From: Rozella allomycis CSF55
Taxonomy: Eukaryota
Assembly: GCA_000442015.1 (NCBI GenBank)
Contig: KE561067.1
Location: 1-64,000 of the forward strand
Length of the DNA: 64,000 bases
Reading direction: 5' to 3'
Shown here: positions 30,406-64,000 of the stretch, in pieces
Numbering within the stretch: the stretch's first letter is position 1
How the letters are laid out: every line of letters starts with the position of its first letter
Position numbers and translations under genes: made by a program
Notes under the pieces: model-generated
Seen by the model: only the letters and a program-made list of their open reading frames with translations
Database searches by the model: none
Told to the model about the DNA's origin: nothing

Positions 30406-30443
30406 TGATTTAAGAAAAATGGAAAAGTAAATGTAAATAAACA

Positions 30444-33400
30444 ATGGTTCTGTTTGGCGAACTTGACATTGTGTAAAAAGAGTATATTGTTGAGAATTAG
30501 TTACTCCACTGGTTCTATCACTAATAGTGTGCAGTCCCAGTACATTGATGAAAAGACGATGCTGGTGGCATTTGGTCATGTGCTCCATTTGTATGACACC
30601 GAAGAGAAGACAATTTTAAGCCAAATGTATGTATGTAAAGATGAAATAACTGCCTTGAGCGTCCATGCCAAAGAGGGAATTGTGGCATTCAGTACAAAAG
30701 TGGAGAGTGACGTCCATTTTCTCTCTTTACCATCACTAAAGGCGTCTCATGTCAAGAGTATAACAGGTATTTTGATTAAAGAAAACTTCATTTAGGTAAA
30801 TGTGAACGTTATTTCATGTTCATCAGGTAATGTTGATGAAAGCGTTCAAAAGGGTTGAGCGATCAAACAACAATATCCATTGACTTTCATGGTGATCGAA
30901 TGGTAGTTCTAGGCGGTGCACCCAGCTTTACTCTGAGTGTGATTGACTGGCGCCAAAACGTTATCCAATGTCAAATTTCGAATGGATCTCCGGCCAAGCA
31001 AGTCCAGTTTAATCCCATGGATAGCCATTACTTTATTACTTTTGGCTATAACCAGTTAAAGTTTTGGTGGATCAAGGAGGGCTATAGAAAGACCAGTTTG
31101 AAGAATGTAACCAAGAGCGAAAGTAGACAGCGAATGGAGATGTTGAATAGAGGAAATGAAGTTATATTCTCTAGGGTGTTGGGTAGAATGATGGATGTTG
31201 ATCCCGTGTGGAATGATAAGAATGAGGTTGTAGTGGTGTTGAATGATGGCAAGGTTATGCGTGTTGGTGTGAATTGTGAATGTGAGCAAATGGATGTCCG
31301 CCTTAATTGTGGAGTGTTAGCTGATTTTAAGTATACCATGAATGGATACGTTATGTGTTACAGAGTAACTTGATTTGATTGCAAGGATAGGATGGAACTG
31401 TTGAATTTCACAAGGAGAGAAAGGAAGCGGAAATAGAAAATGATAATTTTAGAGATTTGAATACAAAATTTGAGCACAAGATAAACCATGTAGTTTTTTC
31501 TCCGTCTCACGAGACCCTAGCAATTGTTGGAAGCAATGGAGAGTTGACAACAATAAACCGTGAAACTTTGAGCAAGGAAAAAGTAAAATAAAACTATATT
31601 ATGTGAAATAAAGCACTTGTTTAATGGAAATAAAGTGAAGAGCATGAGTTTAACGAGTGACCAAGAAATCCTGATGGTGGAAGATGATAAAAGATTGGTA
31701 GTGTTTAATGCAGAAACTAGACAGAGAAGAGGTGAGTAGTTAAAGGGGAGTATATGTAGAATTGTATAGAATCAAGGAAGAGAAAAGGGAAGTGATATGT
31801 GTGTCGCATCCGTTTTTTCGAATGATTGTTGTTGGTCATGAAAATGGGATAGAATTTCATCGGCGAATAGAAAAAGTTGAGAGTGAAGCAGAAAAAGAAG
31901 AGAGTGAGTTGAATGAAGAAACGATGATATTTGAATTCGAGTTGAAAAAGGTCAAGAGGATGAGATTTGACCCTATGGGCCGCCACCTAGTTGTTCATAG
32001 TGAGAGTGGGTTGAGTGTGTTTACGGTTGGCCTGAATGGAATAAATTTTGGCGGCTATTTGAAGAGCAAGGGGAGTATCCAAAGTTTGAGTTTCTATTTA
32101 GTGGAAGAGGAGGTAATTGAGTTTATTAAAAGGAAAAGTTTTCGTATTTGATTGTGCTATGCCACATTGGCCATGAAAGTTTAATTTTCCGGTTCATGTT
32201 TCCGATCGAGGTGATGAATTTCAAGCCTGTTGCGACGACAGAGTATTATATACCCAAGGAGGTTATACCGGTAAGTGAATATTGAGGGTATGAAAGTGTT
32301 GTTCGTACCGGGTTGATTGTGTTGTGAGTGATGTGTTTGCGATACCGAATAGTTTAACGAATGGCAAAGAAGTGATTTATTTGATTGTTGGGGAGAGCAT
32401 TAAAGGTAAGGAATGGAGTGAGAGTTGAAAGGGATGAATTTGCTGTCTAAAAAGCCAACTGATAATGCGAATGAAATACCGACGCTGATATCGAATGCGT
32501 TTAACAATTTGAATGGGCATTTGAAGAGGGCGAAATTTTACCAGAGTTTGAATAGAGAGTGGATGATAACGTTTGGGATGGATGGGAATGTTATGATCCG
32601 GGGTATTTTGGATGTAGAAAAATACCAAATGATTCAAACGAATGAAGGATTCAAGGATGGGATTGCTGAAATAATGATATCGCCAGATTTCAAGTGGCTT
32701 TGTGTTTTGGGGAATGATGGAATATTGAGGTTGATTGAGTGGAAATATACAACGAATGGCAAGAGATTGGCCATGACAGTAGCAGAAGATGTGAAACAAT
32801 TTTACTTGAATCAATTTGAGCATTTTAATAAAATAGAAAAGAATTTTTCATTAATAAAATTTGAGAAAAAGATTAAGGAAATTTCAGAAATAGATCAATC
32901 AGAGACCCTTGTTAAAAGAGAGAATTTGCGAGATAGATTGAGAGAGATTAAAGAAAAGATAAAGCAGATAATAGAGAATAATGGGAGGGTAGATGAGAGT
33001 GAGAGATTGGAGATTGAGGAGATGATAATAGATGAAGAGAAGAGGGAGCGATTGACGTTGCAGGGGATTGAGCAAGTTGATCGAATGAAGAGTGAAATTG
33101 AGAATGAAAATTTGAAGCAAGAAATAATTTTTAGAAAATTGAAATCTGAATTTTGGGATTCAATGAGAGTGAAAGGGAAATCAATTAAATCGTTTGATCT
33201 AAAAATAGATTTGAGAAATTATCCAATCTGTGAAGAAAGAGAAGAAGAAGATTTGATTAAAAAGATTATCAATCTGAGGAAATGTCAACTAGAGTTTGAA
33301 AGGGGGAAAGAGAGAGTGAAAGGTGAAGAGAGAGTGAAAGGTGAAGAGAAAGAGAAAGAGAAGGAGAGAGTGAAGGGTGAAGACAAGCAAAGTTATTTCA

Positions 33401-36262
33401 ATTCAATCTGCAACTTTATTCAAGAGGAAGATAAAGAAGTAACTAGAGAAGGTAAGGAAGTAGTTAGAGAAGGGAGAGAAGGGAGAGAGACTACTTCAAC
33501 ACATACTCCTTCTTCTACCACTACTTCTTCTAATACTTCAACTTCAACTCCTTTTACCACTTCAACCCCCTCTTACCCATCTAACCCCCCTACTACCCCC
33601 ATCAATTCGCTGCTGTTTCATCCCTTCGAGTTGAATTCAATTGAGAAACAAAAAATACAAATTTTGCTAATTAAAGAATTAATTAAAACAATAAAAATAA
33701 AATTCAATTCAAAATTTACAAATTTGTATCAAATGAAAAAAGATGAAATTTCCAAAATAGAAGAAAGAAATTCGCGAATTTTAGAAATAGTGAAAGAATT
33801 AGAGATGAAAGATTATTTAATAAAAAATTATTTTCTGGATGTTGATGAGAACCCAGAATTGTTGTTTCAAAATGATTTAAACAAAAATTCTAAAAAAGAA
33901 ACAATTTCTGAAATTTCCAAAATAGAAGAATGGAAGAAAAGGGGAATAAATTTGATGATGAATGGACGATTGGAATCATTTCAGAATACAGAAAATGAAA
34001 ATAATAAAATTCCAGAATTTATTTCTAAAAATAAATCAGAATTAACAGAAGAAGAAAAGAAGCTATTAAAAGAATATGAAAAGAAACAAAACACAATTAA
34101 AGAAGAATTAGAGAAACATAAAAAAGCATTGGAAACTGAATTGAAGAAAATTTCATCTTTTATTTCTGAAATTGCAATAAATTTTGATCTTAGATTGAAT
34201 CTATTTTTACAAGAAAAAATTTTCACAGATAATCTAATTCTATTTTTAGAACTTGAAATTTCTAAATTACAGAAATCAATTGTATTTAAAAAAGAAAAGG
34301 AAGAAAAAGAAGAAATATTAATTGAAAGGTTGAATGATTTGAAAATAGAAAAGATGAATTGTTTGAATGAGATTCCAGAGATTAAGAAAGATTTAGAGCA
34401 TTGCAGAGAAGGATATGAGAGTTGTTTGAAGAGAGAAAAGGAATTTGAAAAGCAATTTAAAAAAGAGTTTCATCAATATGAATTTTATTACGATTCACTT
34501 TTAAGATTATTCAAAAAGAGGGAATACACAAAGGTAAAGAGATTGAGTTAAAAGGTGATGTAGGTAATGTAAGAGTTAAAGTCTTATAATAGGTAATTCA
34601 ACTATAGTAGTCTTTCACTGCAGGTAATCCCCCCTTTAAGTCTCCAACTGCAGGTAATACCCCCTTCAAGTTTAACTTCTCAAACTTTAACTTCTCAAAA
34701 TAGTTATTTAAAGAATCCATTTAATTCTTTAAATGGAATTGAATCTCTTCTGCCAATTAATGAAAGTGACATCCCAGAAGGTACCTTCTAACCCTTTTAA
34801 AGACCAGGATTGAATGTAGAGATTTGGAATAAATTTCTAGATTTCAGAGAAAAAAAGATTAGATTGGAGCAAGAAGTGAAAATAGCAAATAAAAAATTTA
34901 ATGAAATGCAAAATCTAGTGAATCAAATTGTTTCAGAATCTGAAAAGATAAAAATAGAAACAGAAAAAGTTTCTGCAGATTTCATCAAATTTAAAGAAGC
35001 TTCTTTTCTCTTTTCTTTCAACGTTGAAGTTTTATGCAAACTCAAACAAGGCCAAGTTGAAGTTTCTCAAGCCCCTGTCCTAACTGACTATTCTGATGCA
35101 TGTCTCATCAACAGAAATATTGTAGAGAAATTAAATTCTCAAATTTTGCAAATTGCTTCTCAAAAAGTGGAAGCTCTAAATGAGATTAAAAATTACAGAA
35201 AAGGTAATTAGAAGGGATTTGAGGTGAGATAGGTAATCAGGGAGTTGAAAGGGTGAGATAGGTAACAGAGGGATATTTAAGGTGAGATAGGTAACAGAGA
35301 GTTGAAAGGGTGAGATAGGTAACAAAGGGATTTAGGGTGAGATAGGTACGTTAAAACTAGTAGGATAGAGATAGGTACTTCAATCTGTGGCTTATATATT
35401 AGGTACTCGGATCTGTGGCTTATATATTAGGTACTCGGATCTGTGGCTTATGAAATAGGTACTTGGATCTAAAACTATTTCATATAGGTACCTTCTAGTC
35501 TCTCCCCTTTATCTAGGTAAATACATTCAAAATCCTTAAAAAGGGATTCATTATTTGGAGTGGGAAAATAAAGTTTTGGACTTTCAACAGGAAAATTTAA
35601 TACTGAAAACAAGAGACATTCAACTGTTGAGAGTTTCTAAACAAATGCAAGATTTCATTCGCTCTGGTGACGATGGAAAACATTCAAACGAAATTTCATT
35701 AATTGAAAAAAGATTTGAACACGCAGAAAAAGTATTTTCTTTTCTTTTATTATTATAGAATCATCAACACAAGATTAATGAAAAGAAAAGATTAATTAAA
35801 TCGTTGAAATTGAAAATTAATCAAATTTCTTCTTCAAATGTTGATCTAAGCCACAAGTTGACAAATCTAGACTTGCTAGTCAAAGAGAGGCAACTAAGTG
35901 ATGGGGGAGATAGAAGTGGAGTTGAGAGGGTGGGAGATAGAAGTGGAAGTGAGAGGGTGGAAGATGATCATCGAGATAACGAGAAAGAGAAAGATGGAAT
36001 TGAGTTTAATAGGGTTGATAATGGTCATGGTGATATCTCTAATCAATCCATGGACACAAGTAATTCTCAATGTCATTCTCTAGTAGATAATCTAAAACAC
36101 GTCCAGATTTATAGCAGATTGAAAGAAAAAATTTCAGCTCAATCAGACGATCTTTTCATTCTCAAACAAGAAGTAGAAAAATTAAAGTCTAAATCTATTC
36201 CCTTGTTTGGCAGAATCAATTCTTCAAACATCAACCCCTGGTCGTCATTCGTAAAGAAATAA
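30444..36262 (+). CDS. CFAP43: Cilia- and flagella-associated protein 43 (WD40 + coiled coil), with three compound introns
   Basis: WD40 N-half (PSFTLSVIDW, VQFNP); SEFWDSMRVKG; PEGLN..W..R..KI..E; LKQGQVEV..DYSDACLINR; RKG|IHYLEWE..RDIQLLRVSK. Confidence 0.85.
30767..30852 (+). other. Compound intron: 3 tandem GT-AG units (29, 31, 26 nt)
   Basis: 30767-30795, 30796-30826, 30827-30852; only complete removal restores the frame (SITG|LSDQ). Confidence 0.8.
34534..34653 (+). other. Compound intron: 3-4 tandem GT-AG units (30, 29, 31, 30 nt)
   Basis: 34534-34563, 34564-34592, 34593-34623, 34624-34653; units 1-3 contain in-frame stops, unit 4 is in frame and could be exonic. Confidence 0.75.
35204..35543 (+). 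repeat. Compound intron: tandem array of 12 GT-AG units of 27-29 nt
   Basis: Every unit begins GTA and ends AG; removing all 340 nt gives AAA G|GG ATT CAT (RKGIHYLEWE). Confidence 0.88.
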
Positions 36263-44201: not shown

Positions 44202-44211
44202 TTTATGTTTA

Positions 44212-45108: not shown

Positions 45109-45227
45109 GTCACGAAAATTCGTGAAAAATAGTGAATCGGAAATCAAAGTAGCATTAAATTAACAAATAAAAATAATCTGATTGTTTATTACTAATGTAT
45201 TAATATTTCGGAAAAATATCAAGTCCA

Positions 45228-46550: not shown

Positions 46551-46577
46551 ATCTTAAAGTTACGGTAATTATTATAT

Positions 46578-47609: not shown

Positions 47610-47705
47610 TATGAAAAGGAAAGAACTCGCCGGAAAATTAAAAGCCAATTTTATTAGGCATGAAATCGACACGGCAAACTGATTTTTCGTAAAGGTTGAT
47701 CAATT

Positions 47706-48844
47706 ATGAATAAATTGAAATCAATTTTTACTGGTCATAGCAGAAAGAAAGAAAAAAATGAAAATGGAAGAGTGGTAATGTTTAATGAAAAAATGTCATA
47801 GATTGACTTTAGTTTTAAAAAGCTTTTTGAATATCCTTATGATAGTATAATTGTCATTGAGCCGGAAGAAATAGGAACTTTGAAATTGGAGTAAAAATTC
47901 ATAGTACATTTAAGATAAAGTCATAACTTCATCACAACTCTCCCACAAGATATTTTGGACCTCAGAAAACTGCATAGTATTTTCTTAAAGTAACATATAT
48001 TACATCTCAAACTTAGCAATAATTATATAAAAATACTACCCAATGCATTATTTAAACTAAAAAATCTAAGATTTATTGATTTATCGAGTAATAAGTTGCG
48101 TGATCTATCAGATTGCGGTTTTGAACATTTGGACTTTCTCACCAGCCTGAATTTGACCAACAACCAGTTAGAGTCGGTGCCATTGAGTCTCTTCAAATGT
48201 CATAAGTAAGTATTGCATTTTGTTTTTTCAGACTTAAACATTTGGGGTTGGCCCATAACTTATTGAAGAGAATACCTGAAGAAATAGTAAATCTTTGCAA
48301 CTTAGAAATGCTTACACTAAACGACAATAATATTTTAGAAATAAGCAAATGTCTTCGTTCTTTACGACGCTTGGAAAGTATCACATTGTATGGCAATAAA
48401 TTTAATGAAGCATTGCAATTTGTGTATCTACCTCAGAGTCTAAAATACTGCGGTAATCTAAATCATTTTTGTAATAGAGTAACTTCCGTACCATTCAGCG
48501 ATACCTTTAATCCATGTTCAGAATTTCTGAACTCTCTCGATTTGCGTGATGCCCATAAAAATTCTCTGGAAAAGAGTCTTTCTAACTTATCAATTAGTGA
48601 TGAGTCTTTGGAAAACGTTTGCTCGATACCGCCACCCATATCAAAACACGCCGCGGATTTCTGCACAAGTCCCACAAAATCCCCTAACGTTTGTCAATTA
48701 TGTGGTGACTATATCTATCCAGAAAATGAAATGAGTGAAGAATTGAATAAAATTGAGCAAATAGAAAATTCTGAGATGCAGGATAGTCAAGAGAAATGGC
48801 ATAAATTTTGTTATGAAGTTTGGAATACATCAATAAATGTTTAA
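47706..48844 (+). CDS. Leucine-rich repeat protein, 4 short introns
   Basis: LxxLxLxxNxLxxLP repeats (IDLSSNKL, LNLTNNQLESVP, LGLAHNLLKRIP). Confidence 0.8.
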
Positions 48845-48853
48845 CGCATATTT

Positions 48854-50961
48854 TTATTTATTGAGCTTGTTGATTAGTTTCAATGACGAAGATAAGTCTT
48901 TGACGTTGTGTATGCGAATGACATTTGCCCCTTGCATGACAGCATGGCAACTAACGGCTAAAGTTCCAAAATCTCTTGATTTAGCGTCGTCATTTTGAGT
49001 TAATTCTCCAATAAAGCGTTTACGGCTAACACCAATTAGCCACGGGTACTTTCCAAGTAATCTAGAGGATTTGAGTTGCTTGAGGTTTTGAAGGATTTCG
49101 AGATTTTGCTCTGTGTTTTTGGAGAAGCCAATACCAGGGTCCAAAATGATATTCCAGGGTCGAATGCCACTTTTCAAAGCGTTTGATACGATGGTAGATA
49201 ATTCTTTTTCTAGAGTATTTATTAATCCGTCCTCATAAGAATTGAGAGAATTCATAGTTTTAGAATTTCCTCTCATGTGCATTAAGCAGACAGGGACGTT
49301 AGCAAGGGCCATTGTCTTGTACATATTTTGATCTCTCAATCCCCCGCTAACATCGTTTATCATATCAGCGCCCGCCTTAATAGCAGCAGCCGCGACCTCT
49401 GATCTGAAAGTGTCGATTGAAATAGGTATTTCATTATTTACGCGTCTAATGGCTTCTATAACTGGTATAACTCTCCTTAGTTCTTCTTCGATCGCTGGCT
49501 CATCTGCAAAGGGTCTAGTGGAACAACCGCCAATGTCAATTATGTCTGCCCCTTGTTCCACCATTTCCAAAGCATGTTCCACTGCTGCCTCGACGGAAAA
49601 ATAATCACCGCCGTCACTAAAGCTATCCGGTGTAACATTAAGCACACCCATTATCACACAACTGTCATTCCAAGATATTGTTCTACTTCGAAATTTGGTA
49701 ATCCACTTTGCCGCGTCTTCCGGATCGTAATTTTGAGAATTTTGAAGAATGCTGTATAATTTTTTCATTTCAATTTGTAAAGTTGGGTGAAAGAAACTTG
49801 GATCGATGCTATTTCAAAGGTTTAAAAAAATTACTCGCAAAATGGTGCTAAAACAAACTCTCGCTCTGGTATTCTAGGATGAGGTATTGTTAATTCTGGT
49901 GTAATTAATTCTAAATCGTTATAAAATAAAATGTCTAAATCAATTGTTCTGGGCCCGTTATCAATTTCTTTAACTCTTTTCAATTCTTGTTCAATACCCT
50001 GGAGAAAATGTAGAAGCTCTAGAGGATGGAAATCAGTTTCAATCTAATTATTAGGATTAAAATATCATACTTTGCAAACGGCGTTAAAGAAACTTGGCTG
50101 ATCTAAAAAATACATCGGCTTAGTTTCGTAAAGGCGTGACACTTGAACTACCGATAGCTTTGAGCATTCCATCAAACACAATGCCGCGTTAATGTTACTA
50201 TAAGAATCACCTAAATTAGATCCCAAAGCAACAAAGCATGTATTTCTCTTGTCATCCTTGCTAAGAGAATCATCTGTAAAATTGCTTTTTATCAAAACCC
50301 CTGCTCCATCAGCCTCCAAAACAGCGGCAGGTTTAAGCAACTTGACAGAGACATGTTTGGAATATTCTTTACAAATATCCATCACAAAACAGCATAGACG
50401 TTCCACAGTCTTAAATTTTGTAGATTCAACCTCATTGACGCATCTTTCCACCATTTGCTTATAATTTAAATTTGAGTCGCCAAATATTTTAATGTCAAGT
50501 TTAATTGGTTGTAATTGAATTCTCTCAAATGAATTTAACCCAATAATAGCACGCAAAGCGAGCTCATTAATAGATATGTAATGAACATTAGTCAAACTGT
50601 CGACTCGATTTCTTGAAAAACAAAAAGCGAGATTATTTGAATTCAATAAACATTTTGGTAAACTCACTTTACATTTGAACCAGTCAATATTGAATGAAAA
50701 CAATACCAAAGATACTTCGTCTGCAAAATTAACAAGATCTTTAAATTTTTTATCCAGACAGAAATTTTTCAAAGTTTTAGCAACCGTCGAGTAACTTACT
50801 GAATCCTCTAAACTGTCAGTTTCACTGGTGGAAGATATATCTATTTTGAGTTTCAAGTTGAAAATAACTGGCTGACTAGAAAATCTATCCCAATTATCAA
50901 CTCCTACACAGCAACTTGTTTTAAAATTCTCCAATATAACAAAACTCTCTGTTTCGGTCAT
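48854..50961 (-). CDS. FOL1: Trifunctional folate synthesis protein (DHNA-DHNA-HPPK-DHPS), 2 short introns
   Basis: SVSYSTV, IIGLNSFER; VALGSNLGD..GPRTIDLDILFY..PHPRIPEREFVLAP; MGVLNVTPDSFSDGG, ISIDTF, DPGIGF, GVSRKRF. Confidence 0.95.
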
Positions 50962-51108
50962 GAAAAAATGGGGCTGGGATGTCAAAGGTTAGTAAATATC
51001 GAGTTTTTTCAATTCAAAATATCGCTAAGATGATTATTTAGAAGTTGATTATTCCTGTTTTGTCTAATTTGGCGAGTGAAGAATATTTAATATGACGGCA
51101 AATAGTGT

Positions 51109-52976
51109 TTATTTTCTTCCAAATGCATCCATTCCTTTGTCCAAGAGCTTTTCAATATCCATTCGTTGATGAATCATAGAAAGCTTTGGCCATATCATTC
51201 TTTCTCCCGTTAGTATACTATATTCGAAATATTCTTTTGATGGGTTATTCATCAATCTTAAATAATCAAGAAATCTTGGTTTTGGAAACATTGTTACAGA
51301 GCCATGAAATGTTTGTAAAAAGAAGTACGACCAGTCCAGTTTAAGCCATGTTGGCAAGAGATACAATTGTCTTAACAGTTGAAGCCAGCGTCTCATATCT
51401 AACTTTAAATACAGTTCAAGAAAAGAAGCAATGAATCCTCCTTTAAAGTTAAATCCACTTGAATGCGACCCATGCCTTTCGTAAAAGAATGGAATGATCA
51501 TCGGATTTACTTGTGACACTATTGTAAATTGAGTATTGAATAGTTGAGATAATTTTTCTGTCGGTACATCGATTTTGAAAGTCCCATCTCTCCATTTGTG
51601 TACTCCAATAGAATCAAAATGGGTTACAAAGTTGGGGCTGCTTTCCGAAAACTTTCTGATGCGCTCATTTTTCAAGGGATGTTCATAGCCTATTTCACAA
51701 GGCTTTAATTCATCATTTGGTATCTTTTTATACAATTTGACGCTACGAAACATGAATGGGATTGCAATTGACGCTAAAACCGCGCTGTGAATGACTACAT
51801 CAGGCGTCGTTAGATAATTAAGAATTTGTGGTGGTTTTTGATGATCCTCATGAATGACAGATATATTTAAAATTCTTCCAGTCTTTTTATATGCCTCAAT
51901 AAAGGTTAAATCACCAAGAGTACATTTTCGTAAAACCGATACAGCGTAATCAGTATCAACCATAGCTCCACTCCTTAAAAACCTGAGCAAACGACTGGAC
52001 ATACTATCTAACGGCGACATTAACTTTAAGTGCTGCTCTTTATCATTGTATAGTTCAAGCAACTGTTCATCGGTTCGCGTACAAACAATGGCTGCCATGA
52101 TTGCCCCAGAGCCTATTATTTTATTTACATTATTTCGGTACTTGTTCCAGAAATAATGCGCGGCAAAATACCCTGGTCGAGCATGGTCTTTATTACACCT
52201 TAATTAATGATAACAATTACATATACCTACCTATATGAAAAAGGCCAAACATGGCACCCCCAGAAAGGCATAGAGCAGTCCTTCCATAAATCTTGGACGC
52301 TTTCCGGAAGAAATCCTTTTTCTCTTCGGAAGGTATCATATCTGTTTGAATTATCCACTGCAGACCGCTACACACTTTTAAAAAAAGGTATGAAAATTAC
52401 CCTCGCCAGTAAATTGTTCAATTATAGTTTTAGTGCCAATGTATGACTGATTGTAGAGTCTTTCATGCATAATACCACCCAAGTTGCATCGAACGCCGCT
52501 CTCTAGTAATAACTTGATCATTCTTTGAGCCTTTTCTTTAAAGTTTTGGTTACTCAGTCTAGTACCCCTCAAGTTATCCGTAATCTATAGAAATACAAAT
52601 TTGCACCAATTACCTCCTTTATCAAGTTATAGTCAAAGTATGGTGATCTGGGATCTTTTCTCCATTTATCTTTATGTGTTGCTTTGTCAGCACCCTTTGC
52701 GCAATGTGTGTATTCGTTTAAGTCTTTGGCTGTTTTCATTCCTTGTTGCCACCGTCTTAAATTTCGATTTCGTACGTGCCCATTAAAATATTCATATGCT
52801 CTAACAATTTGTCGAAGGATTGTATAGGCAATAAGGTCAATTACTAAGGCAGTTAAGGTGATTAAAAGAAGGGGATAGCGTAGTAATTTAAACGTCTTGC
52901 TGTTTGGAAGAGATGAATCATAGTCTTTTAGAATCTTTATACCTTCAACTGGCGTATTTGAATCTGAGGAAACCAT
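51109..52976 (-). CDS. Patatin-like triacylglycerol lipase (TGL3/4/5, SDP1-like), 4 short introns
   Basis: YGRTALCLSGGAMFG, ISGTSSGAI (GxSxG), LTFIEAYKKTGRILNI, LNYLTTPDVVI, WRDGT, IVSQVNP. Confidence 0.92.
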
Positions 52977-53105
52977 GTTAACTGTGACGCAATTCTGAAA
53001 TACGAAAAACTGGAAACATGATACGAAAAATGCGCAATTCAAAAATTAATCACGTTAAACATAAGTAAATAAATAATGCATCAGTTTAACAGACTGAAAT
53101 CAATT

Positions 53106-53419
53106 TTATACAGATTCATATCCTCCTTGGCGGGTAAGAGCCACTTGCTCTGCAGCGATGTCTATTTCAGCCATTGACAATTTACCATAATTGCCTCTTG
53201 AATCTCCTCTTAGACTGCAATGTGGGTCTATCAGTATTTACTACATTTGATTACCATAAAACGCAATGTTGGCAAGATATTCCACACAATACAAACATGC
53301 AGCACCTGTAATGATTACAATTGGAAATGGAGCCAGTTCTAATCAAATAAATAATAGTTTACTGTCAATAGAGGAAATTGCCTAAGTCCTTTCTTAAATC
53401 CAAAGTTAAAATTGACCAT
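53106..53419 (-). CDS. Small single-TM protein, possibly NDUFA4/COXFA4-like; model needs a GT-TG intron
   Basis: APFPIVIITGAACLYCVEYLANIAFY|DPHCSLR via a 27-nt GT-AG intron; first exon joins only through a non-AG acceptor. Confidence 0.4.
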
Positions 53420-53534
53420 TTCGTTGAATCAACCGATGAATCGGAATTTCCAAAATTTAAACAAATCAATTAAAAGGCTACGAATGAGATATAATGAGTT
53501 ATGTTATCTTAATTTATTGATTATTCTATAATGG

Positions 53535-53870
53535 CTAAATTCGGGTTTTGATGCTTGCTATATGGCTTTCGAGATCAACTATTTCTTGAACAATATTTTG
53601 GATATACATTGCCGCGTTTTCTAGAACTTGGTCTCTCGATAATTTATGATCCAACCCAAGAATTTGTCTAAGTGCCATGTTTGCTTGATTAATTTGCGTT
53701 CGACGCTTATTCTCTGAACGAACATGAACTCGTCGCCGATACTCCTTTTTATCTAGGAGCTTTAAAGATGCCAAGTCGTCCAAGGGAACGATTTCTTTAG
53801 TCGGTTTAATGCTTGCTTCATTTAGAAAGAAATTATCAAAATAATCTTGAGAATGGAAGTCAGTTATCAT
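53535..53870 (-). CDS. bHLH transcription factor (start uncertain)
   Basis: RRRVHVRSENKRRTQINQANMALRQIL..SRDQVLENAAMYIQNI. Confidence 0.75.
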   Translation of the reverse strand: MITDFHSQDYFDNFFLNEASIKPTKEIVPLDDLASLKLLDKKEYRRRVHVRSENKRRTQINQANMALRQILGLDHKLSRDQVLENAAMYIQNIVQEIVDLESHIASIKTRI

Positions 53871-53969
53871 GTCTTGTTTTAAAATTACCCCTATCACATC
53901 TATATTTGTACCAAACGAGGGGTCAAATTTTGAACCAATCAAAAGACTCTAGGTTTTGCAGGGGTGAAA

Positions 53970-55079
53970 ATGCTATTCAACTCTGTAGACGCACTCGCCT
54001 TTACAATTTGTGCCGCATATGTAGCATTGTATTTCTACGGTAAACGAAGAAATAAAAGCATAGTGGAAAATTGGTACATTATATTTTTATAACGTTTTAG
54101 GTATAGAAACAGTATCACGTTGTTTGAAAATCAATTTTCTAAACTTTCCGTTGATGAAAAGCACGGAATTGTAGCACTCGGAGCGAAGGACTTTATTCTC
54201 CAATTTTCTGGTAGAGATTTTGTATCAAAGTGTGAAATCGAAATAGAAGTAAAATGATACATTTGAAAACAAAGTTAAAACCCAGACATGACATACTGAA
54301 AATGATTTATGGGTATACGTTGCATAATCTAGAGGATACTGTCACAATTAGTGTGACACTTCCAGAGACGATCGCACTGCCAATTATCGCTGCCGGGCCG
54401 GAAACTGTATTAAAGCAGTGCCACAGAGAAAGATATGATTTGGTAAAAGTTGGTAACGAAATAAAAAGAATCAATTTACTCCTCTCAAGAAAGGAGCCGC
54501 CATCGCAGATTCGGTCTTAATGCTTGGAGAAAGTCATGAAGCCATGAATTTTATAATGGACTCAAATTTTAAAGAATTTATATCTAATAACGAATCCGTT
54601 TATACTCTGGAATATTTAATTATCTCAGACCAACCAGCTGACTTTACCATTGAGTAAGCCGTCTCTTTCTTGTTGTTTTAGTGCAGAGGTTTCTTCTGTA
54701 AAAGGAATAGAATTTAAATACAAGCTTAAAAATAAGAATGATTATCTTGCCATGAATGAACTTTTATTTTATATTCTGGACAAGATCGAGCAAATGAAAT
54801 TATCACCGGAAACTCTCCAGAAGATCAAAAATTCGAGAAAAGAAGCCGCTGAAGTCATATACAGAAAAACAAGAAAAGATAGAGAAAGGGTAACTGAGTA
54901 ATGTTTGCCAATATGAATAGATTGCCCAAGAAAAGAAAATTGAAAAAAGAAGAATGGAAGAAAGAAGAATGCAAAAGCTTTCCCCAGAAGAGCAACGAAA
55001 ATTTGAAGAAAAAATGAAAAAGAAAGAACAAAAGAAGAATGTAAAGAAGGGTCGTTTGCTTTTAACAGTTGGGCGCTAA
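53970..55079 (+). CDS. CCDC47/DUF1682 (PAT complex subunit)-like, 5 short introns
   Basis: TM then YGKRRNKSIVENW..FENQF..FSGR..LKPRHD..RYDL..IISDQP..LSPEEQRKFEEK. Confidence 0.8.
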
Positions 55080-55226
55080 TTAATAGAATAATAAATATTA
55101 TTACATTACAAAAAAAATTCTTTTCCATTGATTAAAAGTTTCTCTCCTCTTCAAGAAGATTAACTTTGATTAGAAAAGCTTTAACGGCTATAAAAAGCCA
55201 AAGGCTATACGCTAACCCAAAGCTAT

Positions 55227-56093
55227 ATGAATCGTTATTCTTCAGATTTGCTTAAATTTCTACTTTACTTGGTCAATTTTCTTGCATTGGTATACAGATT
55301 AAGGTTTCTTATATTTAGATTGGAGGATTGGCATTGGTTGGGCTGTCAATTGCAGCAATAGTTGAACAAAATTCAATTCACGATTTTGTCATGTAATAAC
55401 ATCTTTTAGAATTTTATTAGGATGGGATATCCGGTTTCGTTGCTGATAATCGGGGCACTATTCGTTTTGTTGGGCTTATTTGGCATGTGGGCAACGGGTG
55501 TTCAGTCTGTACGTATGATCAGACTAGTAATGATTACTAATGAACTCTATTAGTACCTAATTGTACTCTCCATTATAATTATCCTGCAAGTTGTCCTTAC
55601 AGCAGTTGCATTATCTCAACATGACAAAGTAAAAACACTCTTTACGAATAATAGATTGATTCTATGGTGAAAGATGGATGGTATAGCGCCAATCCATCTG
55701 TTATTCAAAACGTCGAACAAATGTTTGAGTGCTGTGGGTACAGGAATGTTCTGGATCATGCAATACCTGCAGATTGCACTAAAGATCCCAATTTTGGTTT
55801 TAAGAGATCTTGCAGATACCAAGTAATGAAATCAAAATTCTTTTAGAGATTGTCACTTTGGCTCAAAGGCATACAAGATTATTGGGTATAGTTGGGCTCA
55901 TCCTTGGGGTCATGGAATTCGTAGCGTTAATATGTGCTAGCATTTTATTATATCAATTGGGAGGAGAAGACTGGAAACGAGAAGGAAGTATTCTTGAAGA
56001 AGCAAGAAGGTAAAAGGTTAATGTTCATCAAACTAGCTGGTTAGATTAAATCGAGAGGGGGCAATCCCCACATATCAATCAGCCCGCCCATAA
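55227..56093 (+). CDS. Tetraspanin, about 6 short introns (last exon uncertain)
   Basis: 4 TMs; LGLFGMWA; large loop FECCGY..PADC..SC. Confidence 0.82.
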
Positions 56094-56192
56094 TAAATTT
56101 CATTTCAATTTGATTACTTTGAATCTATATTTATATATTCTACTATTTTTAGACGTTTTTTTGAAACTTGAGACTACCCCTTTGAAACAAAA

Positions 56193-56807
56193 ATGCTTGG
56201 ACGTGTTAAAATCCTGTTTTGCGTATTCGCTACAATCTTAGCTTCCCCTGACAAAGTAGCCAAAATAATAGATGTTAAGGGTCGATTGGTCAAAGTTCGC
56301 GGCAAAGAATATTTTGAAGAATTAGTAACTACAGATAATATCTACATGACTGATCAAAATAAACTACAAGCTATTGATCACAAGAAGAAGCATTCTGTAT
56401 ATGATTTGAGCGGTAAAAAGGTCGGAGGATGCGAAAAAGAAGAACTCGATATTCCACTAAACGATGTGTACGTTGAAATCAAAGGCGACAAAATTGGCAA
56501 TGAAAAAGTCAATGAAGGAACTATTGGCGAGAATAAACAATTGAAGCGCGAATTAGACGCTCATAATACTTCAAAGTCATCGACGGCAACGAAAAAGTTA
56601 ATTGAAGAAAAATCAGTGAACGGCGATGCCAGTTACACAATTGAATTTATGGATCCATATATTCTCGCTGGAATAATAACGTTTTCCATATTTCTCTCGC
56701 TAACTATATTAATACTTACAATTAAGAGAATCAAGAAAAGTAAAAACGTTGAATATTCTAGTCTTTCAACTTCAAGTAAAGAGGGCCTTACAAGTAATCT
56801 GGCCTAA
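56193..56807 (+). CDS. Single-pass type I membrane protein of unknown function, intronless
   Basis: Signal peptide, C-terminal TM with basic stop-transfer, YSSL motif. Confidence 0.65.
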   Translation: MLGRVKILFCVFATILASPDKVAKIIDVKGRLVKVRGKEYFEELVTTDNIYMTDQNKLQAIDHKKKHSVYDLSGKKVGGCEKEELDIPLNDVYVEIKGDKIGNEKVNEGTIGENKQLKRELDAHNTSKSSTATKKLIEEKSVNGDASYTIEFMDPYILAGIITFSIFLSLTILILTIKRIKKSKNVEYSSLSTSSKEGLTSNLA

Positions 56808-57085
56808 CTGATTAAGTCAATAAATATTTTTTGAATTCTAAAAGGCATTTTAATGACATATTCATCGATATACTTAAAGGGTAATATCAGTGAGATTGAT
56901 CCCCTAATCCCTTCACCTTGGCACTTGATTTCGGCATTAAATATCCATTTAACTATTGGACAATGCAAGAAGTTTTCACCACTACATCGACTTATTATCT
57001 ATTAATATAATCCTTGCATTTGAGAACATATTCTTATAAATAGCAATTGATCACTATTTCTAAAAATAGATTTAAGTGCTTCATN

Positions 57086-58054
57086 ATGTCGATTTTTTCT
57101 TTTCTTTTCGCAGTTATATTTAGCTTTTGCTCAGGTACGATGAGCCCTTCCGATGCCAATAAACTTTTGGCTTTGACAAATCAACACCGCGCATCTCTCG
57201 GGCTTAACGCCCTGCAGCTAGATTCCAAATTAACAGCTGCCGCTGAAGGACATTCCAATGCTCAAGCCCAAGCTAAAACTATGGGACATTTTGGTTTTGA
57301 GAATAGGATGGCTACCTGTGGCTTTCCAGGATCCGATTGGGCTGAAAACGTGGGAATGACACAAAGACGCCCAATCGATGTCGCTTTCATGCACCAAATG
57401 TGGTTAGATTCACCAGGACATCGGCGAAATATTGAAAAGGTTGGTCTCACACATGTAGGATTTGGGTTAGCAGCCAATCCCGATGGGGATTATTTGTTCT
57501 ACACAGAATTCTTTTCTGCAATATCTTCAGGATCAAAGTACAAGGGTACGCAACCTCAAGTTCAACAACCGTCAAGTTATCAAGGATCTCCATCAAATGG
57601 CCATCGTTCATTATACGACACTTCTACTGGCGCAGGCGCACCTACAACGAAGAAAGGATGTAAGAACTCAATCAAATCAGGAGCAGGTATTCCTCAAATT
57701 CCAAATGCTTCAACTCAAAATACGTCAACTCCAAATACTTCAACTCCAAATACGTCAACGCCAAATACATCAACACAAAATACGGGAACACAATCCCCTG
57801 ATGGAAATTCAGGAGATCAACATTCTGCGCCTTCTTTGGAGTCATTGATTAAAGACACTCTTGGCGATCTTATGAATGGAGATTATTCAAATTCGCAAAC
57901 CCAAGATTCAAGCGATCCAAACGCACATCAAACCCAATACTCCAAAAAGACATACAAGATTAATAATTCCGGTCAAGGAGGCCCTAATGTTACTGTGTAC
58001 CAGTTCTTTATTATATCAAATGGTGGTAAAGACTCGGGAGAGGTGAAAAAGTAA
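57086..58054 (+). CDS. Secreted CAP (SCP/YkwD-type) protein with low-complexity tail
   Basis: LTNQHRASLGL..LDSKLTAAAEGHS..MGH..AENVG..WLDSPGHRRNI..VGFG; NTSTP repeats. Confidence 0.9.
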   Translation: MSIFSFLFAVIFSFCSGTMSPSDANKLLALTNQHRASLGLNALQLDSKLTAAAEGHSNAQAQAKTMGHFGFENRMATCGFPGSDWAENVGMTQRRPIDVAFMHQMWLDSPGHRRNIEKVGLTHVGFGLAANPDGDYLFYTEFFSAISSGSKYKGTQPQVQQPSSYQGSPSNGHRSLYDTSTGAGAPTTKKGCKNSIKSGAGIPQIPNASTQNTSTPNTSTPNTSTPNTSTQNTGTQSPDGNSGDQHSAPSLESLIKDTLGDLMNGDYSNSQTQDSSDPNAHQTQYSKKTYKINNSGQGGPNVTVYQFFIISNGGKDSGEVKK

Positions 58055-58156
58055 CAGTCAGTTCAATCAATAAAAAATAATTTTTGATCTTATAAAATTG
58101 ATTTTTTATAATCATTTCTTTGATTCTCCATAGTTTTGAGCGGGAACAAAGCCACA

Positions 58157-61100
58157 ATGGTAAAGGTACTCAATGTAGCTGAAAAACCTTCTATGGCGAA
58201 AGCCATAGCAGATCATTTATCAAACCATCAATTTAGCACTGTATACTATAAGATAATAATATTTGTAGAGAAAAGGCGTAGACAAGTATTGCAACAATTT
58301 TGATTTTATTGTGTACCAGCAAAGAAACCAGATGCAGTGTGAGATGACAATGACGAGTGTTCTTGGACATGTAATGGAATATGCGTTTCCAGACGAGACG
58401 AAGAGTTGGACAGGCTATCCAGTTGAAAATATGTTTTCCATACCGATAGTGAAAAAAGTTCATCCAGTAGAGGCATGATAGATTAATAATAGGACAAGGA
58501 GAGAATAAAGGTTAATTTGGAGAGGGAGAGTCGAAAAGCAGAGTGGCTAATTATTTGGACTGATTGTGACAGAGAAGGCGAGAATATTGGGATGGAAATT
58601 TCAGAAATATGCAGACGGGCGAATCCAAGACTATTAGTGTATAGAGCCAGATTTTCTGTTGTCAATGGAAGGTTTGAATGATTTTGTTTGAAGAGTAGGG
58701 AGTTGAAGAATTCATTTGAGAATCTGTCGCAGATAGATGTGAATATGAGTATGGCGGTTGATACGAGACAAGAGCTTGATTTAAGGATTGGGGCTGCCTT
58801 TACGCGCCTTCAAACGATAAATTTACAAAGCAAATTTAAGAGTTTAGAAAAGACTGTGATATCGTATGGCCCATGCCAATTTCCAACGCTTGGATTTATT
58901 GTTGATCAGTATAGAAAAAATAAAGATTTTGTTTCTGAATGTTTTTGGAGTTTGACGGCAACGTTGGAAAAGGAAAATAAGAATTGCGTTTGTTCATGGG
59001 CCAGGGGAAGCATATTTGATGAAAGAGTTGTTGAACTTTATAAAACGATTTGCCAAAGAAGCCCGATAGCCAGAATAATGAAAGTGGATGAAAAGGCTAC
59101 AAAGAAATAGTAATAGAGATGATTGAATGAAATAGTCGACCCTTGCCATTGACAACTGTTGAATTTCAAAAGTTTGGCACGCGATATTTAAAGATGAGTT
59201 CGCACAAACTGATGAATGTAAGTTGATTCTATTTTATTGAAAGATTGCAGAGAAATTGTATAACAGGGGTATAATTAGTTATCCTAGAACAGAAACAGAT
59301 GTATTTGAGAATGGAATTGATTTGAAGGGGTTGATTCAAAAACATTGCGATAACGAAATTTGGGGAAATTATTGCCAGGGTTTAATGCAGGGGTCATTTA
59401 TGTTCCCAAGAAAAGGAAAACACAACGACAAGGCGCATCCCCCAATCCATCCAACGATGAATGTAAATAATTTGGAAGGAGAAGAATTTAAAGTTTATGA
59501 ATTTATAACGAGAAGGTAAAATAGAATAATTGAATGGGAAAGATTTTTAGCTTGTTGCTCAAAGGATGCGTTAGGCGTTGAAACAAAAGTTGAAATAAAA
59601 ATTGCTGATGAAACGTTTGCATGTTCGGGGCTTTTGATTACGGAAAGAAATTATTTAGAAATTTACATTTATGATAAATGGAATGAAAATAGTTTACCAA
59701 AATTAATTGTTGGTGAAGAAATCAAAGCAAAAATTTCAAAAACGAATGGAAAGACTACTGCGCCACCATTGTTAACTGAAGGCGATTTGATTGGATTGAT
59801 GGACAAGAATGGGATTGGCACTGATGCAACAATTCATGATCACATTAAGAAAATTCAAGATAGAAATTATGCGAAAAAGACTTCAAAGGGTTTCATTCCA
59901 ACGCCACTTGGTCTTTCTCTAGTTGAAGGCTACGACGCTTACAATTTTGATCATTCTTTAACAAAGCCCCAATTAAGAGCTTTAATGGAATCTGAAATGA
60001 ACAATGTTTGTCAAGGTTTAAAATCTAAAAATCAAGTTTTAGAACAGGGAATCAATTTATACTTTAATTTATTCATTAAAACTAAAAATTCTATCAATTT
60101 GTTATTGCAGGTAAAATGTTATGACTTTCTAAAAATAGGTATGGCTTAGTGTTAATCTATTTTTAGAAAGTTTCAGAAAATTTGAATCAAGAAATTTCAG
60201 AAGATGACCACGTTGAGATAAATCGACATTCAAATTATGTTCAACCGTCAAACAATTCAAATTCAAATTATGTTCAACCGTCAAACTCAAATTCAAGTTC
60301 AAGTTATGTTCAACCGTCAAATTCTTTTTCTTCAAACACATCAAATACTTTTTCTTCAAACTCTTCTAACTCNGTTCAACCGTCAAACAATTCAACTTCC
60401 AACTCATCAAACTCCTTTAACCCTTCAAACACATCAAACTCATATAACCCTTCAAATCCATCGCTGGAACAAAATACAAATTCCCCTCCTTGTAGCTGCG
60501 GTTTAAATTCATTTCTCTTCACAGTCAAAAAACAAGGCCCCAATCTTGGCAAAAAATTCTATTCTTGCTCAAAACCTCAAAATGAAAAATGCGATTTTTT
60601 TCAGTGGCTTGATCCTCCAATAGATCAGTCTGCGCCACAAAGATCTGTAGATGATTTTGGCTCTTCAATATCTTGTAACTGCAATAAAATAGTCCAATTA
60701 AAAACTGTCCAGAAATCTGGCCCAAATTATGGGAAAAAGTTTTATTCTTGTTCTACTTGCGATTTCTTTCTGTGGAGTCTCAACGACTCTTCCCACAGTC
60801 AATCCATTCAAGAGGCAATCAAATGCGATTGTGGGTTGGAATCTGTTTCTTTCACGTGTCAAAAGCCTCCAAATAATGGAAGAAAATTTTTTAAATGTCC
60901 AAAACAAAGTGGAATGAAATGTTCGTTTTTTCAATGGGCTGATGAACATTCAACTACAAGGGTTGATCATAGTACAAGAGTTAATTACAATTCAAGAGAT
61001 AGCAGCAATACATGGGATAACGCTAATACATGGGATAACAACAATTCAAGGGTTAATCAATATAATTCAAGGTCTAATCATAATTCTTCTAATACAAATT

Positions 61101-61229
61101 CATATAATTCAAATGCAAACGTTGATTGCTTTCTTTGCAAACGAGTAATCTTTTCGTATTTCATTTAATCTTTAGAAGGGACACTTTGCTAATAATTGTC
61201 CATCAAAGAAGAGAAGGCAAAATCATTAA
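58157..61229 (+). CDS. TOP3: DNA topoisomerase III alpha with three GRF zinc fingers and a CCHC knuckle
   Basis: VLNVAEKPS, MTSVLGH, WTDCDREGENIG, SYGPCQFPTLG, ISYPRTET, AHPPIHP, GIGTDAT; C.CG..GPN.GKKFY.C..C.FFQW. Confidence 0.95.
60111..60166 (+). other. Compound intron: 2 tandem 28-nt GT-AG units
   Basis: 60111-60138 and 60139-60166; only removal of both reaches the open frame AAA GTT TCA. Confidence 0.75.
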
Positions 61230-61399
61230 TTTATCATATAAACACATTTAAAACTCATTATATAATTAAATTCTATTGTTAAGGTATAAGACGCTATAAC
61301 ACTTCAATGGGATCTCGATCTCTTCAGCCTATATATATCACCGATGTCTATAAATAACTATCTCGATATATTTAGACGAACGAGAAGTCCCTGTTACAT

Positions 61400-61960
61400 A
61401 TGTATCGTTGTATCTTTCTTTTGTTTTCTGCATTCGTATTTGACTATTGCTCAGCTACTATGAGCTCTGCCGACGCAAATAAGCTCTTGGCTTTGACAAA
61501 TCAGCATCGTGCTTCCATCGGTTTAAATGCATTGCAATTAGATGGCAAATTAACCGCTGCCGCAGAAGGACATTCCATTGCTCAAGCTCAAACAAAAACT
61601 ATGAGCCATAATGGGCTTGACAGTCGAATAGCAAACTGCGGGTTTCCAGGAATCGTTTGGGCTGAAAATGTTGGCATGTCAGAAAACAAGCCAATAAATG
61701 TCGCTGAAATGCATAAAGGCTGGTTGAATTCACCGAAACATCGAGCAAATATTGAAAAGGCGGGTCTCACTCATGTAGGATTCGGTTTGGCTGCCAATGG
61801 AAATTTTTTGTACTATACTGAATTTTTTGGTGGAGTCGCGTCGGGTTCTAAATACAGTGGCACAAAACCACAAGGTCGACCATCAAACAGTCAAAGATCT
61901 TCTTCGACTGGTCGCCGCTCATTGTCCGATCAGTTAGCAATCAACAGGTTCAAACGTTGA
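61400..61960 (+). CDS. Secreted CAP protein, short paralog
   Basis: Signal peptide plus CAP domain nearly identical to 62362-63435. Confidence 0.9.
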   Translation: MYRCIFLLFSAFVFDYCSATMSSADANKLLALTNQHRASIGLNALQLDGKLTAAAEGHSIAQAQTKTMSHNGLDSRIANCGFPGIVWAENVGMSENKPINVAEMHKGWLNSPKHRANIEKAGLTHVGFGLAANGNFLYYTEFFGGVASGSKYSGTKPQGRPSNSQRSSSTGRRSLSDQLAINRFKR

Positions 61961-62361
61961 TCACTGTATCTGGATGGGTTATTTCTCTCCATCAAAGAAG
62001 AGATGTAATATATAATAAACCCTTTTAAATGTCAATCAATAGTTAAAAGTTGTAATAACCGCGGTTTCGTTTATTTTCGTAAAAAATGATATATTGCGTC
62101 CAACGTGTCATGAAATATGCTCTGAACTCTATATAATTTTGGATCCAGCCTGGGTTTAGGGAGTTCATTGAGTGATGAATCTTCCAGTTCGAGATTGTCA
62201 TGTATGATGTTCTTGGGACCACTTTGATAAATGTAGCAGCCAAATAAAATGTAGCCTGCTTCAATTGATCTAAACATTCTGCCAATTGAATACATTTTTA
62301 TCATCTTTGTCTATAAATAGCATCGTACGTTATATCCATGCAGGAGAAGTCCCTGTTTCAT

Positions 62362-63435
62362 ATGTATCGTTGTATATTTCTTTTTTGTGTATTTGTATTT
62401 AAATATTGCTCAGCTACTATGAGCTCTGCCGACGCTAATAAACTCTTGGCTTTGACAAATCAACATCGCGCGTCAATAGGCTTAAATGCGCTGCAGCTGG
62501 ATAGCAAATTAACCGCTGCTGCAGAAGGACATTCAGTTACTCAAGCTCAAACAAAAACTATGAGCCACAATGGGTTTGACAATCGAGTCGCAACGTGTGG
62601 GTTTCCAGGAAAAGTATGGGCTGAAAACGTGGGTATGACAGAAAATAAGCCGATAAATGTCGCTGAAATGCATCAAGGCTGGCTGAATTCACCGAAGCAT
62701 CGCGAAAATATTGAAAAGGTGGGCCTCACTCATGTGGGATTTGGTTTGGCTGCCAACGGAAATTTATTGTATTATACACAATTTTTTGGTGGAACTTCAT
62801 CAGGGTCGAACTACAGTGGAGCAAAACCACAAAGTCAGCAACCATCAAGTTATCAAGGATCTCCTTCAAATGGTCATCGTGCCCTGTCTGATAATTTCGC
62901 AGGCAATAATGGCGGGTCTGCGGCTAATAATTCGCCCGCATTTAATAGTGAACCTACTGGCAATAACATGCCGACTAATAGTGGCGATAACATACCAATG
63001 AAGGGTATCAGACCTAAGCAATCAAAGTCGCGTGGAAGTGGCATTCCTCAAGTCCAAAATCAAAATGTACCGAATAGTTCGGAGGAAAATGTTCCATCTT
63101 TTCAAGGAAATTCAAGTGGAAATCAAGCTATGCCTTCTATGCCTTCTATGGATGCCTTTTTCGGAAACATATTTGGTGGACTTATGAACGGACAACAGCC
63201 AAATTCTCAAACTCAGTATTCCAGTGATCCAAACGCTCACCAAACCCAATATTCAAGCGATCCAAACACCAAACAAACCCAATCAAAAGGAAATGGTTCA
63301 CCGACATCCGGTTCTCAACCATTTAATTTACCAGGACCAAACAACTTACAATCTAATTGCGCCAAGGGTGCACCTTCCAATGGANTAAACTTTAACTCTT
63401 TTAGAGAAAATATTTTATTTCAGTTTTTTGACTAG
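62362..63435 (+). CDS. Secreted CAP protein with long N/S/Q/P-rich tail (3' end broken by N at 63385)
   Basis: CAP domain; tail shares QQPSSYQGSPSNGHR and SSDPNAHQTQYS with the 57086 paralog. Confidence 0.88.
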   Translation: MYRCIFLFCVFVFKYCSATMSSADANKLLALTNQHRASIGLNALQLDSKLTAAAEGHSVTQAQTKTMSHNGFDNRVATCGFPGKVWAENVGMTENKPINVAEMHQGWLNSPKHRENIEKVGLTHVGFGLAANGNLLYYTQFFGGTSSGSNYSGAKPQSQQPSSYQGSPSNGHRALSDNFAGNNGGSAANNSPAFNSEPTGNNMPTNSGDNIPMKGIRPKQSKSRGSGIPQVQNQNVPNSSEENVPSFQGNSSGNQAMPSMPSMDAFFGNIFGGLMNGQQPNSQTQYSSDPNAHQTQYSSDPNTKQTQSKGNGSPTSGSQPFNLPGPNNLQSNCAKGAPSNGXNFNSFRENILFQFFD

Positions 63436-63599
63436 CTCGACTAATACCACCTTATTATCCGGGGACTTTAAATCAAGTGATATTTGAATTTACAACTAGG
63501 GAGAGCTCAATAATAATATATATAAACTCGACCACCAAGCACGCTTTACAATCATTGTTGGAATATACTATTATTTTTTCAAAAGCTTCACGATAATTT

Positions 63600-64000
63600 T
63601 CAAATGCTTCTGCGGACACCTGTTCTTATAAATATCTTAAAAGTTACAATCAAAGGGTACCTGAGCAATAAATTAACCGAAGCAAGTCTCGCTAGTCTAC
63701 CCAAAGAGAGATCAGTGATAGCCAAAGCCGTCATAAATTCGAAAATCAAGCTAGCCTCTTCGAATGTAATTCTTTCAATTTTACTCAAATGAAACAGAAA
63801 TTCCAAATCGATATTGTCGTATCCATTTAAAATCAGCTGCCGTGAAAAGTTTAGAATACAACTTTACTGTATAAAAGGATCTAACAAAACTGAAATGGAA
63901 AGATTGGAATGCGTAACAAGTGTAAGAATCATTCTGATTAACACATTACGCAAGATATCGCTCTTATGATATTCCACTAATGAAAATATTAAATGCTTGT
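63600..64000 (-). CDS. 3' part of an unidentified intron-containing gene running off the window
   Basis: Open frames separated by GTA..AG segments of about 27 nt; product unrecognised. Confidence 0.35.

Follow-up and report, generated by a model that had tools for sequence, protein, structure and literature searches.

Two abutting 28-nt mini-introns in the TOP3 gene of Rozella allomycis, candidates for stepwise removal, and a genome-wide class of intron arrays

Introduction

Recursive splicing is known mainly as a means of shortening very long introns. Here we describe a 56-nt intervening sequence, made of two abutting 28-nt units, in the topoisomerase III gene TOP3 of the fungal parasite Rozella allomycis CSF55; it lies in a 64,000-nt stretch of the genome (NCBI GenBank assembly GCA_000442015.1, contig KE561067.1, positions 1 to 64,000 of the forward strand), hereafter called the window. 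Among the closest described systems, passages of a Drosophila study report ratchet points, that is, recursive splicing with zero-nucleotide exons, in large introns (example 73 kb), documented by junction reads and lariats (bioRxiv 10.1101/006163). For Schizosaccharomyces pombe, part of a second report describes a zero-length exon in the 336-nt intron of SPNCRNA.445, a host RNA of a small nucleolar RNA (snoRNA), and gives two instances (bioRxiv 10.1101/226894). Fungal stwintrons, as outlined in sections of PMC7138796, have an internal intron nested in or beside the donor of an external intron and are removed by consecutive U2 reactions, and the same sections state that one-step and two-step routes can coexist in complex intervening sequences of fungi. 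Introns of ~30 nt in R. allomycis are mentioned in a passage of PMC6349667. No passage on head-to-tail intron arrays was found by term in the portions of PMC13685798, PMC13644364, PMC6009652 and PMC5014332 consulted, and the literature searched (few subscription papers, without supplements or the species' genome papers) showed neither arrays of introns in Rozella or any other organism with short introns nor a short Top3 splice form.

Compared with these systems, the TOP3 intron carries AG|GT inside one intervening sequence (60138/60139), a pattern enriched over shuffles, and homology and site scores indicate that no base is kept between the sites, judging from the best parse of TOP3 and from consecutive residues in Top2. 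From its DNA, the intron appears to work like zero-length-exon recursive splicing. The GTA and TAG ends of both units are intact, and A follows the last AG, with no split G or T; by its predicted splice sites, the compound intron is no stwintron.

Results

Two abutting mini-introns in TOP3

TOP3 lies at 58157-61229, where nine exons give a single open frame of 941 amino acids (aa); seven of its eight introns span 26-31 nt, and the remaining one is the 56-nt sequence at 60111-60166 (Table 1). A sequence-only reading of the window had described this sequence as two dissimilar 28-nt GT-AG units that abut, and the description held to the base, with the junction AG|GT at 60138/60139 and the units agreeing at 13 of 28 ungapped positions, where pairs drawn from 179 predicted introns of 28 nt agree at 12.7 on average. 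In agreement with that reading, removal of one unit, whichever it is, brings a stop at 60205 after 620 aa, and removal of both opens the 941-aa frame with three GRF zinc fingers (PF06839, three stretches) and a CX2CX4HX4C CCHC knuckle; the stop that is met when neither unit is removed (TAG at 60147, 610 aa) had been missed. The claim that the same architecture occurs in a second, unrelated gene was borne out by the multi-unit arrays in a CFAP43-like gene of the window. An assembly artefact at TOP3 was rejected: its two units differ in sequence, and no N lies closer than the one at 60373.

In the DNA, both TOP3 units resemble normal introns of the organism, both must be removed, and such arrays occur genome-wide. 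These results suggested that the 56-nt intron is a pair of complete mini-introns separated by a zero-length exon, and that full-length Top3 is made by two ordinary splicing reactions that would remove them constitutively; we put the probability of this reading at about 0.7. The spliceosome would act as a ruler that settles on the earliest AG 26 nt or more beyond a GTA donor: unit 1 would be cut at 60138, the exonic CAG joined to the GT of unit 2, and unit 2 then cut at 60166. The reverse order of removal would also be workable, and since the two sites overlap, they could never be used simultaneously. Of the earlier proposal, the two-unit compound intron with stepwise (recursive) removal is favoured by the sequence statistics and the genome-wide class, whereas the functional short Top3 attached to it is not supported, on the helix scores given below.

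Table 1. Features of TOP3 and of the CFAP43-like gene in the window
Feature	Position	Strand	Remarks
TOP3 exons 1-6	58157..59542	+	Nine exons together give the 941-aa frame
Six single TOP3 introns, 26-28 nt	58241-58268, 58467-58492, 58672-58698, 59110-59135, 59218-59243, 59516-59542	+	
TOP3 exon 7, end of type IA topoisomerase core, terminates in AG	59543..60110	+	Pfam PF01131 positions 246-410 of 411
Unit 1	60111..60138	+	Putative complete 28-nt GTA..TAG mini-intron in phase 0, ending at the earliest AG that lies 26 nt or more past the donor
Candidate internal ratchet point (AG|GTA, zero-length exon)	60137..60141 (break 60138/60139)	+	From sequence
Unit 2	60139..60166	+	Putative complete 28-nt GTA..TAG mini-intron adjoining unit 1
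TAG met when neither unit is removed	60147..60149	+	610 aa
TGA met when just one unit (either) is removed	60205..60207	+	620 aa
TOP3 exon 8	60167..61144	+	Remainder of last core helix, Ser/Asn-rich linker, three GRF zinc fingers, first half of CCHC knuckle
Last TOP3 intron, 31 nt	61145..61175	+	First eligible AG used, giving canonical CX2CX4HX4C knuckle
Last TOP3 exon including stop codon	61176..61229	+	
3 abutting units (29, 31, 26 nt), CFAP43-like gene	30767..30852	+	
3 or 4 abutting units, CFAP43-like gene	34534..34653	+	3' end ambiguous: 34623 or 34653
12 abutting units of 27-29 nt, CFAP43-like gene	35204..35543	+	Pfam PF25828 matches run to position 701 in one flanking exon and resume at 703 in the other

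Intron rules of the genome

The genome of R. allomycis (11.86 Mb, 1059 contigs) was analysed, and a simple self-trained gene finder was run on the window and 97 stretches of the genome, 928,510 bases in all. Among 933 predicted introns with well-scoring flanking exons, 855 were 26-33 nt long, 2 were 24 nt and 76 were at least 38 nt; the raw spacing of GTAA and TAG peaked at 26-29 nt independently of the gene finder. GTA was the donor in 828 of the 855 introns of 26-33 nt, and just 6 of the 392 predicted introns measuring 28 nt or more (28-33 nt) ran past an earlier AG 26 nt or more from the donor. Scored against the 855 single introns, unit 1 of TOP3 stood at the 88th percentile. Applied to the last TOP3 intron, the rule of the first eligible AG restored the canonical CCHC knuckle there; among 119 homologues, the knuckle spacing was X4 in 52 and X3 in 0. 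The public model P0001 has a knuckle one residue short at 61145-61175, which is not canonical. A search for branch-point words in single introns gave no clear motif at a fixed position, and the U2 small nuclear RNA was found in the genome.

A strictly length-locked spliceosome was rejected because the ribosomal P0 gene holds a 139-nt non-array intron (L091:363-501, minus strand). This intron has a CTAAC branch word and C/D-box-like motifs, with Rfam matches below the gathering score, and probably hosts a snoRNA.

The array class across the genome

Predicted introns of at least 50 nt numbered 66, and one that holds a run of N was left out. Full splitting into units of 25-34 nt at AG|GT was found for 17 of the 65 others (shuffle mean 0.23, maximum 3 in 2000), while none of the 65 split at any of seven control junction words. 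Abutting intron-like pairs numbered 45 at spacer 0 versus 0-3 at spacers 1-14. Genome-wide, three WAGGTA words at a period of 26-33 nt gave 196 matches, which overlap inside arrays and are not an array count, compared with 35 for the reversed control and 2 at a period of 40-47 nt. A motif-only array finder returned 96 matches, 74 of them with two units and most without gene-model support, and the counts were therefore taken from the gene-finder set. At the size of the TOP3 intron, 6 of 18 predicted intervals of 50-68 nt split into units, against 0.22 expected; when the interior of the TOP3 56-mer was shuffled 20,000 times, a unit split arose in 2.3%, and one with a GTA junction and units of 26-32 nt in 0.6%.

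Arrays were found in 12 of 328 multi-exon models, two of which are pieces of one gene, and 5 of the 12 had more than one array. Their hosts included HYDIN/CFAP65-like, dynein, CFAP43, Tra1, family-B DNA polymerase, SNF2-type ATPase and Top2 genes, and a PRP39-like gene holds a pattern match. Units in arrays had a mean length of 29.1 nt versus 27.6 nt for single introns. Many of the long predicted intervals connect different Pfam families or lack support from any, and many of the long intervals other than arrays look like gene fusions or gene-finder errors. In a pattern scan of metagenomes with at least 121 stretches, none of the 80 loci inspected by eye, their gene context unmodelled, was recognisable as a gene-borne intron array; all were repeats, mini- or microsatellites among them, and no relative could be recognised. 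Motif period by itself is no evidence of introns. Array hosts tended toward G-skewed coding strands (window 30001-36000 and others), with a mean GC skew of 0.19 versus 0.11 (p 0.03).

In Top2, a 3-unit array of 89 nt sits within the catalytic motif MTDQ|DHDG, which has a metal-binding role, with zero coding bases between units, and its flanking exons match consecutive residues of the yeast (527/528) and human (542/543) PDB chains. Since these residues are consecutive and the profile positions on either side of the 12-unit CFAP43 array are 701 and 703, the arrays appear to be removed whole. At 34534-34680, another array of the CFAP43-like gene runs into two 30-nt repeats bounded by AG|GTA and open in frame, which may be coding or extra units. 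A 248-nt block of Top2 occurs twice around a single N at L030:3199-4148 with 2 differences, and the arrays flanking the copies are unlike in sequence and, on the upstream side, in number of units (3 vs at least 4); the duplicate is possibly two haplotypes of a diploid organism joined in the assembly. In the window, tandem duplicates that are nearly identical, with a single N between the copies, were also seen at 511-571, 30084-30140 and 39739-40154, and are probably scaffold joins.

Origin and upkeep of arrays

Unit similarity was compared between neighbouring units only. Eleven of the 17 arrays were internally periodic with every junction kept, compared with 0 of the 48 other long intervals, and no decayed array with a lost junction was seen among these 48 non-splitting intervals. 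The neutral chance of keeping all 27 junctions in the 11 periodic arrays was ~10^-13, a figure that assumes star-like divergence and is only indicative. A loose TRF scan gave at least 261 rows and was too noisy for a selection test. The upstream exon ended in AG at 14 of 17 arrays versus 214 of 855 single introns (p 1.6e-6), and the downstream exon started with G at 15 of 17 versus 304 of 855 (p 1.4e-5); arrays cluster in genes, so that both comparisons are non-independent. AG upstream and G downstream fit slippage between short direct repeats at the intron's two ends. Tandem duplication of an intron, mediated by the short AG|G repeats that bound it, is the probable origin of arrays, whose junctions, once made, would be kept by selection. 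By the same route, the TOP3 pair may be an old duplicate whose interiors retain no similarity; loss of a micro-exon, or new splice sites in a longer intron, are alternatives for this pair.

Alternative readings of the TOP3 intron

Several observations weigh against stepwise removal at TOP3 or against its proposed background. Unit 2 stood at the 17.5th percentile of the 855 single introns, below the median. The interior identity of the TOP3 units was 0.38 versus a baseline of 0.48, the lowest of 18 arrays, and the exon after the pair begins with A, not G; duplication as the origin of this pair is accordingly put as a possibility. Array density in the gene-finder sample is inflated, since ~267 kb were picked blind and the rest were mostly contigs already known to hold arrays. 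The gene finder had no array state and a smooth long-intron tail, and its short-intron prior was seeded near 28 nt. Its untrained first pass chose another parse of TOP3, with a 31-nt exon and an intron at 60170-60200. The 139-nt P0 intron, finally, makes excision in one step possible.

Excision of a single 56-nt intron in one step, with the internal AG|GT a chance or vestigial junction that is skipped, is the most serious of the alternatives and, in our estimate, improbable. Both routes yield the same mature mRNA, and the 56-nt join in public P0001 is that of a gene model, a prediction. A unit split by chance at a single site has a probability of 0.6-2.3%, the TOP3 units lack similarity, and unit 2 has a branch-like TTAAT word 11-12 nt before its end. 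Against this, one-step excision would skip the TAG at position 28, while 386 of 392 introns do no such skipping. The P0 intron has no AG from position 26 to 49, unlike the TOP3 intron; no decayed arrays were seen, and of the non-splitting intervals of 50-68 nt, 0 of 12 were established as real introns. Run X1 matched positions 44001-64000 of the window in 21 short, partial pieces, none of which spans the TOP3 site; this is no evidence either way. Two-step removal is favoured because of the first-AG rule and the intact array junctions.

A use for incomplete splicing, either to make a core-only, short Top3 in addition to the long form or to control the TOP3 level through nonsense-mediated decay (NMD), seems more doubtful still. 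The site lies just past the Pfam core, budding-yeast Top3 has no such zinc fingers, and short Top3 proteins occur among the homologues. Yet the short forms would swap the conserved end of the last core helix for unrelated sequence: over the seven residues past the junction, the homologue score (106/119 homologues) was 6.1 bits when both units were removed, as against -13.8 and -15.7 bits for the short forms, so that the last turns of the helix would be lost, and genuine-looking short homologues of Top3 retain them. Plain retention would give an equally short protein, for which two units are unneeded, and elsewhere arrays interrupt catalytic motifs, where a truncated protein would serve no obvious purpose. 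The intron position also appears common to other fungi. Val at the same boundary codon, followed by an early end, was found in 8 of 22 short-tailed homologue models versus 14 of 90 long-tailed ones; from the homologue proteins, these Val turns would be models reading into the GT of a shared phase-0 intron, and the boundary position appears inherited.

NMD is expected where a premature stop lies well upstream of a later exon junction. The one-unit forms stop 937 nt ahead of the last intron, and UPF1 is present (domain E 1.4e-68). NMD of one-unit intermediates is therefore plausible by the distance rule, and regulation is not indicated. One-unit and unspliced RNAs would be intermediates or NMD substrates, with no functional isoform among them.

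Rival exon-intron layouts of TOP3 score poorly in our comparison, in which the in-frame options at the site were scored against the 855 single introns and the homologues. The trained gene finder takes 60111-60166 with a minimum exon of 20 or of 3 nt. A 10-nt micro-exon (60139-60148) between introns at 60111-60138 and 60149-60176 is in frame, its introns are both 28 nt, its helix score of 1.9 bits falls inside the homologue range, and micro-exons of 5-8 nt are predicted at other sites. This layout is very improbable nonetheless: it needs a GTG donor, found in 6 of 855 introns, its second intron stands at the 0.8th percentile, and the gene finder passed it over even with the 3-nt minimum exon. 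Layouts in which unit 1 is coding and followed by a 32-nt intron at 60139-60170, or unit 2 lies inside a 31-nt exon followed by an intron at 60170-60200, can be set aside almost entirely, for although both are in frame, AAG acceptors are frequent (275 of 855 introns) and the latter is the choice of the untrained pass, their introns score at the 3.2th and 0th percentile and their helices at -15.7 and -13.8 bits, respectively, and the former bypasses an eligible TAG.

Gene model and neighbours of TOP3

The protein of the exon stretch 59547-60110 is 100% identical to Rozella allomycis CSF55 Top3 (P0001), and the last core helix was placed by the homologue profile. P0001 fuses an upstream CAP-domain gene to TOP3 (57140-61229) and lacks the TOP3 N-terminus encoded from 58157. 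Three similar CAP-domain-like genes stand around TOP3, at 57140-58033, 61460-61960 (shorter) and 62419-63390; the Pfam scan covered the first, within P0001.

Discussion

The TOP3 feature itself is real, the idea of a short isoform is not supported, and the interest lies in the class of arrays. Taken as a whole, the data lean modestly toward a broader picture. In it, the spliceosome would rule introns at ~26-33 nt; long introns in protein-coding genes would mostly be minisatellite-like stacks, whose units are gained and lost by slippage and removed singly; and the TOP3 pair, the smallest and most diverged of them, would show that selection keeps the internal sites after repeat similarity is gone. 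What TOP3 adds to the class is that junctions persist in a pair without remaining similarity; a new Top3 isoform is unsupported.

If this is true, introns of 56-340 nt would normally be removed by recursive splicing, in hosts that include essential genes (Top3, Top2, family-B DNA polymerase, Tra1-like) and flagellar genes. Such arrays would offer a small-scale setting for intron definition by length, for overlapping 3' and 5' splice sites and for the multiplication of introns through tandem duplication. Annotation is affected too, since units can be hidden and micro-exons misplaced in the gene models of such genomes.

As far as passages on short-intron eukaryotes (microsporidia, ciliates, myxozoans and nucleomorphs) go, R. 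allomycis resembles them in its tiny GT-AG introns with weak signals and in rare long introns with C/D-box-like motifs. With stwintrons, as the sections of PMC7138796 describe them, the TOP3 intron shares one intervening sequence and consecutive reactions; unlike in stwintrons, the Rozella units are serial and each appears complete, so that no order would be imposed by nesting. The Drosophila ratchet introns in the passages of bioRxiv 10.1101/006163 likewise have AG|GT within one intron, constitutive stepwise removal (proposed here for TOP3) and no exon base kept, whereas their hosts are very long and the TOP3 intron is 56 nt, consists solely of minimum-size introns and is read from genomic sequence. 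The Schizosaccharomyces pombe case, in the part of bioRxiv 10.1101/226894 consulted, also concerns a fungus, a short intron and a 3' splice site abutting a 5' splice site; in contrast to it, the Rozella arrays have 2-12 units, lie in protein-coding genes, are many per genome and are mostly structured as tandem repeats.
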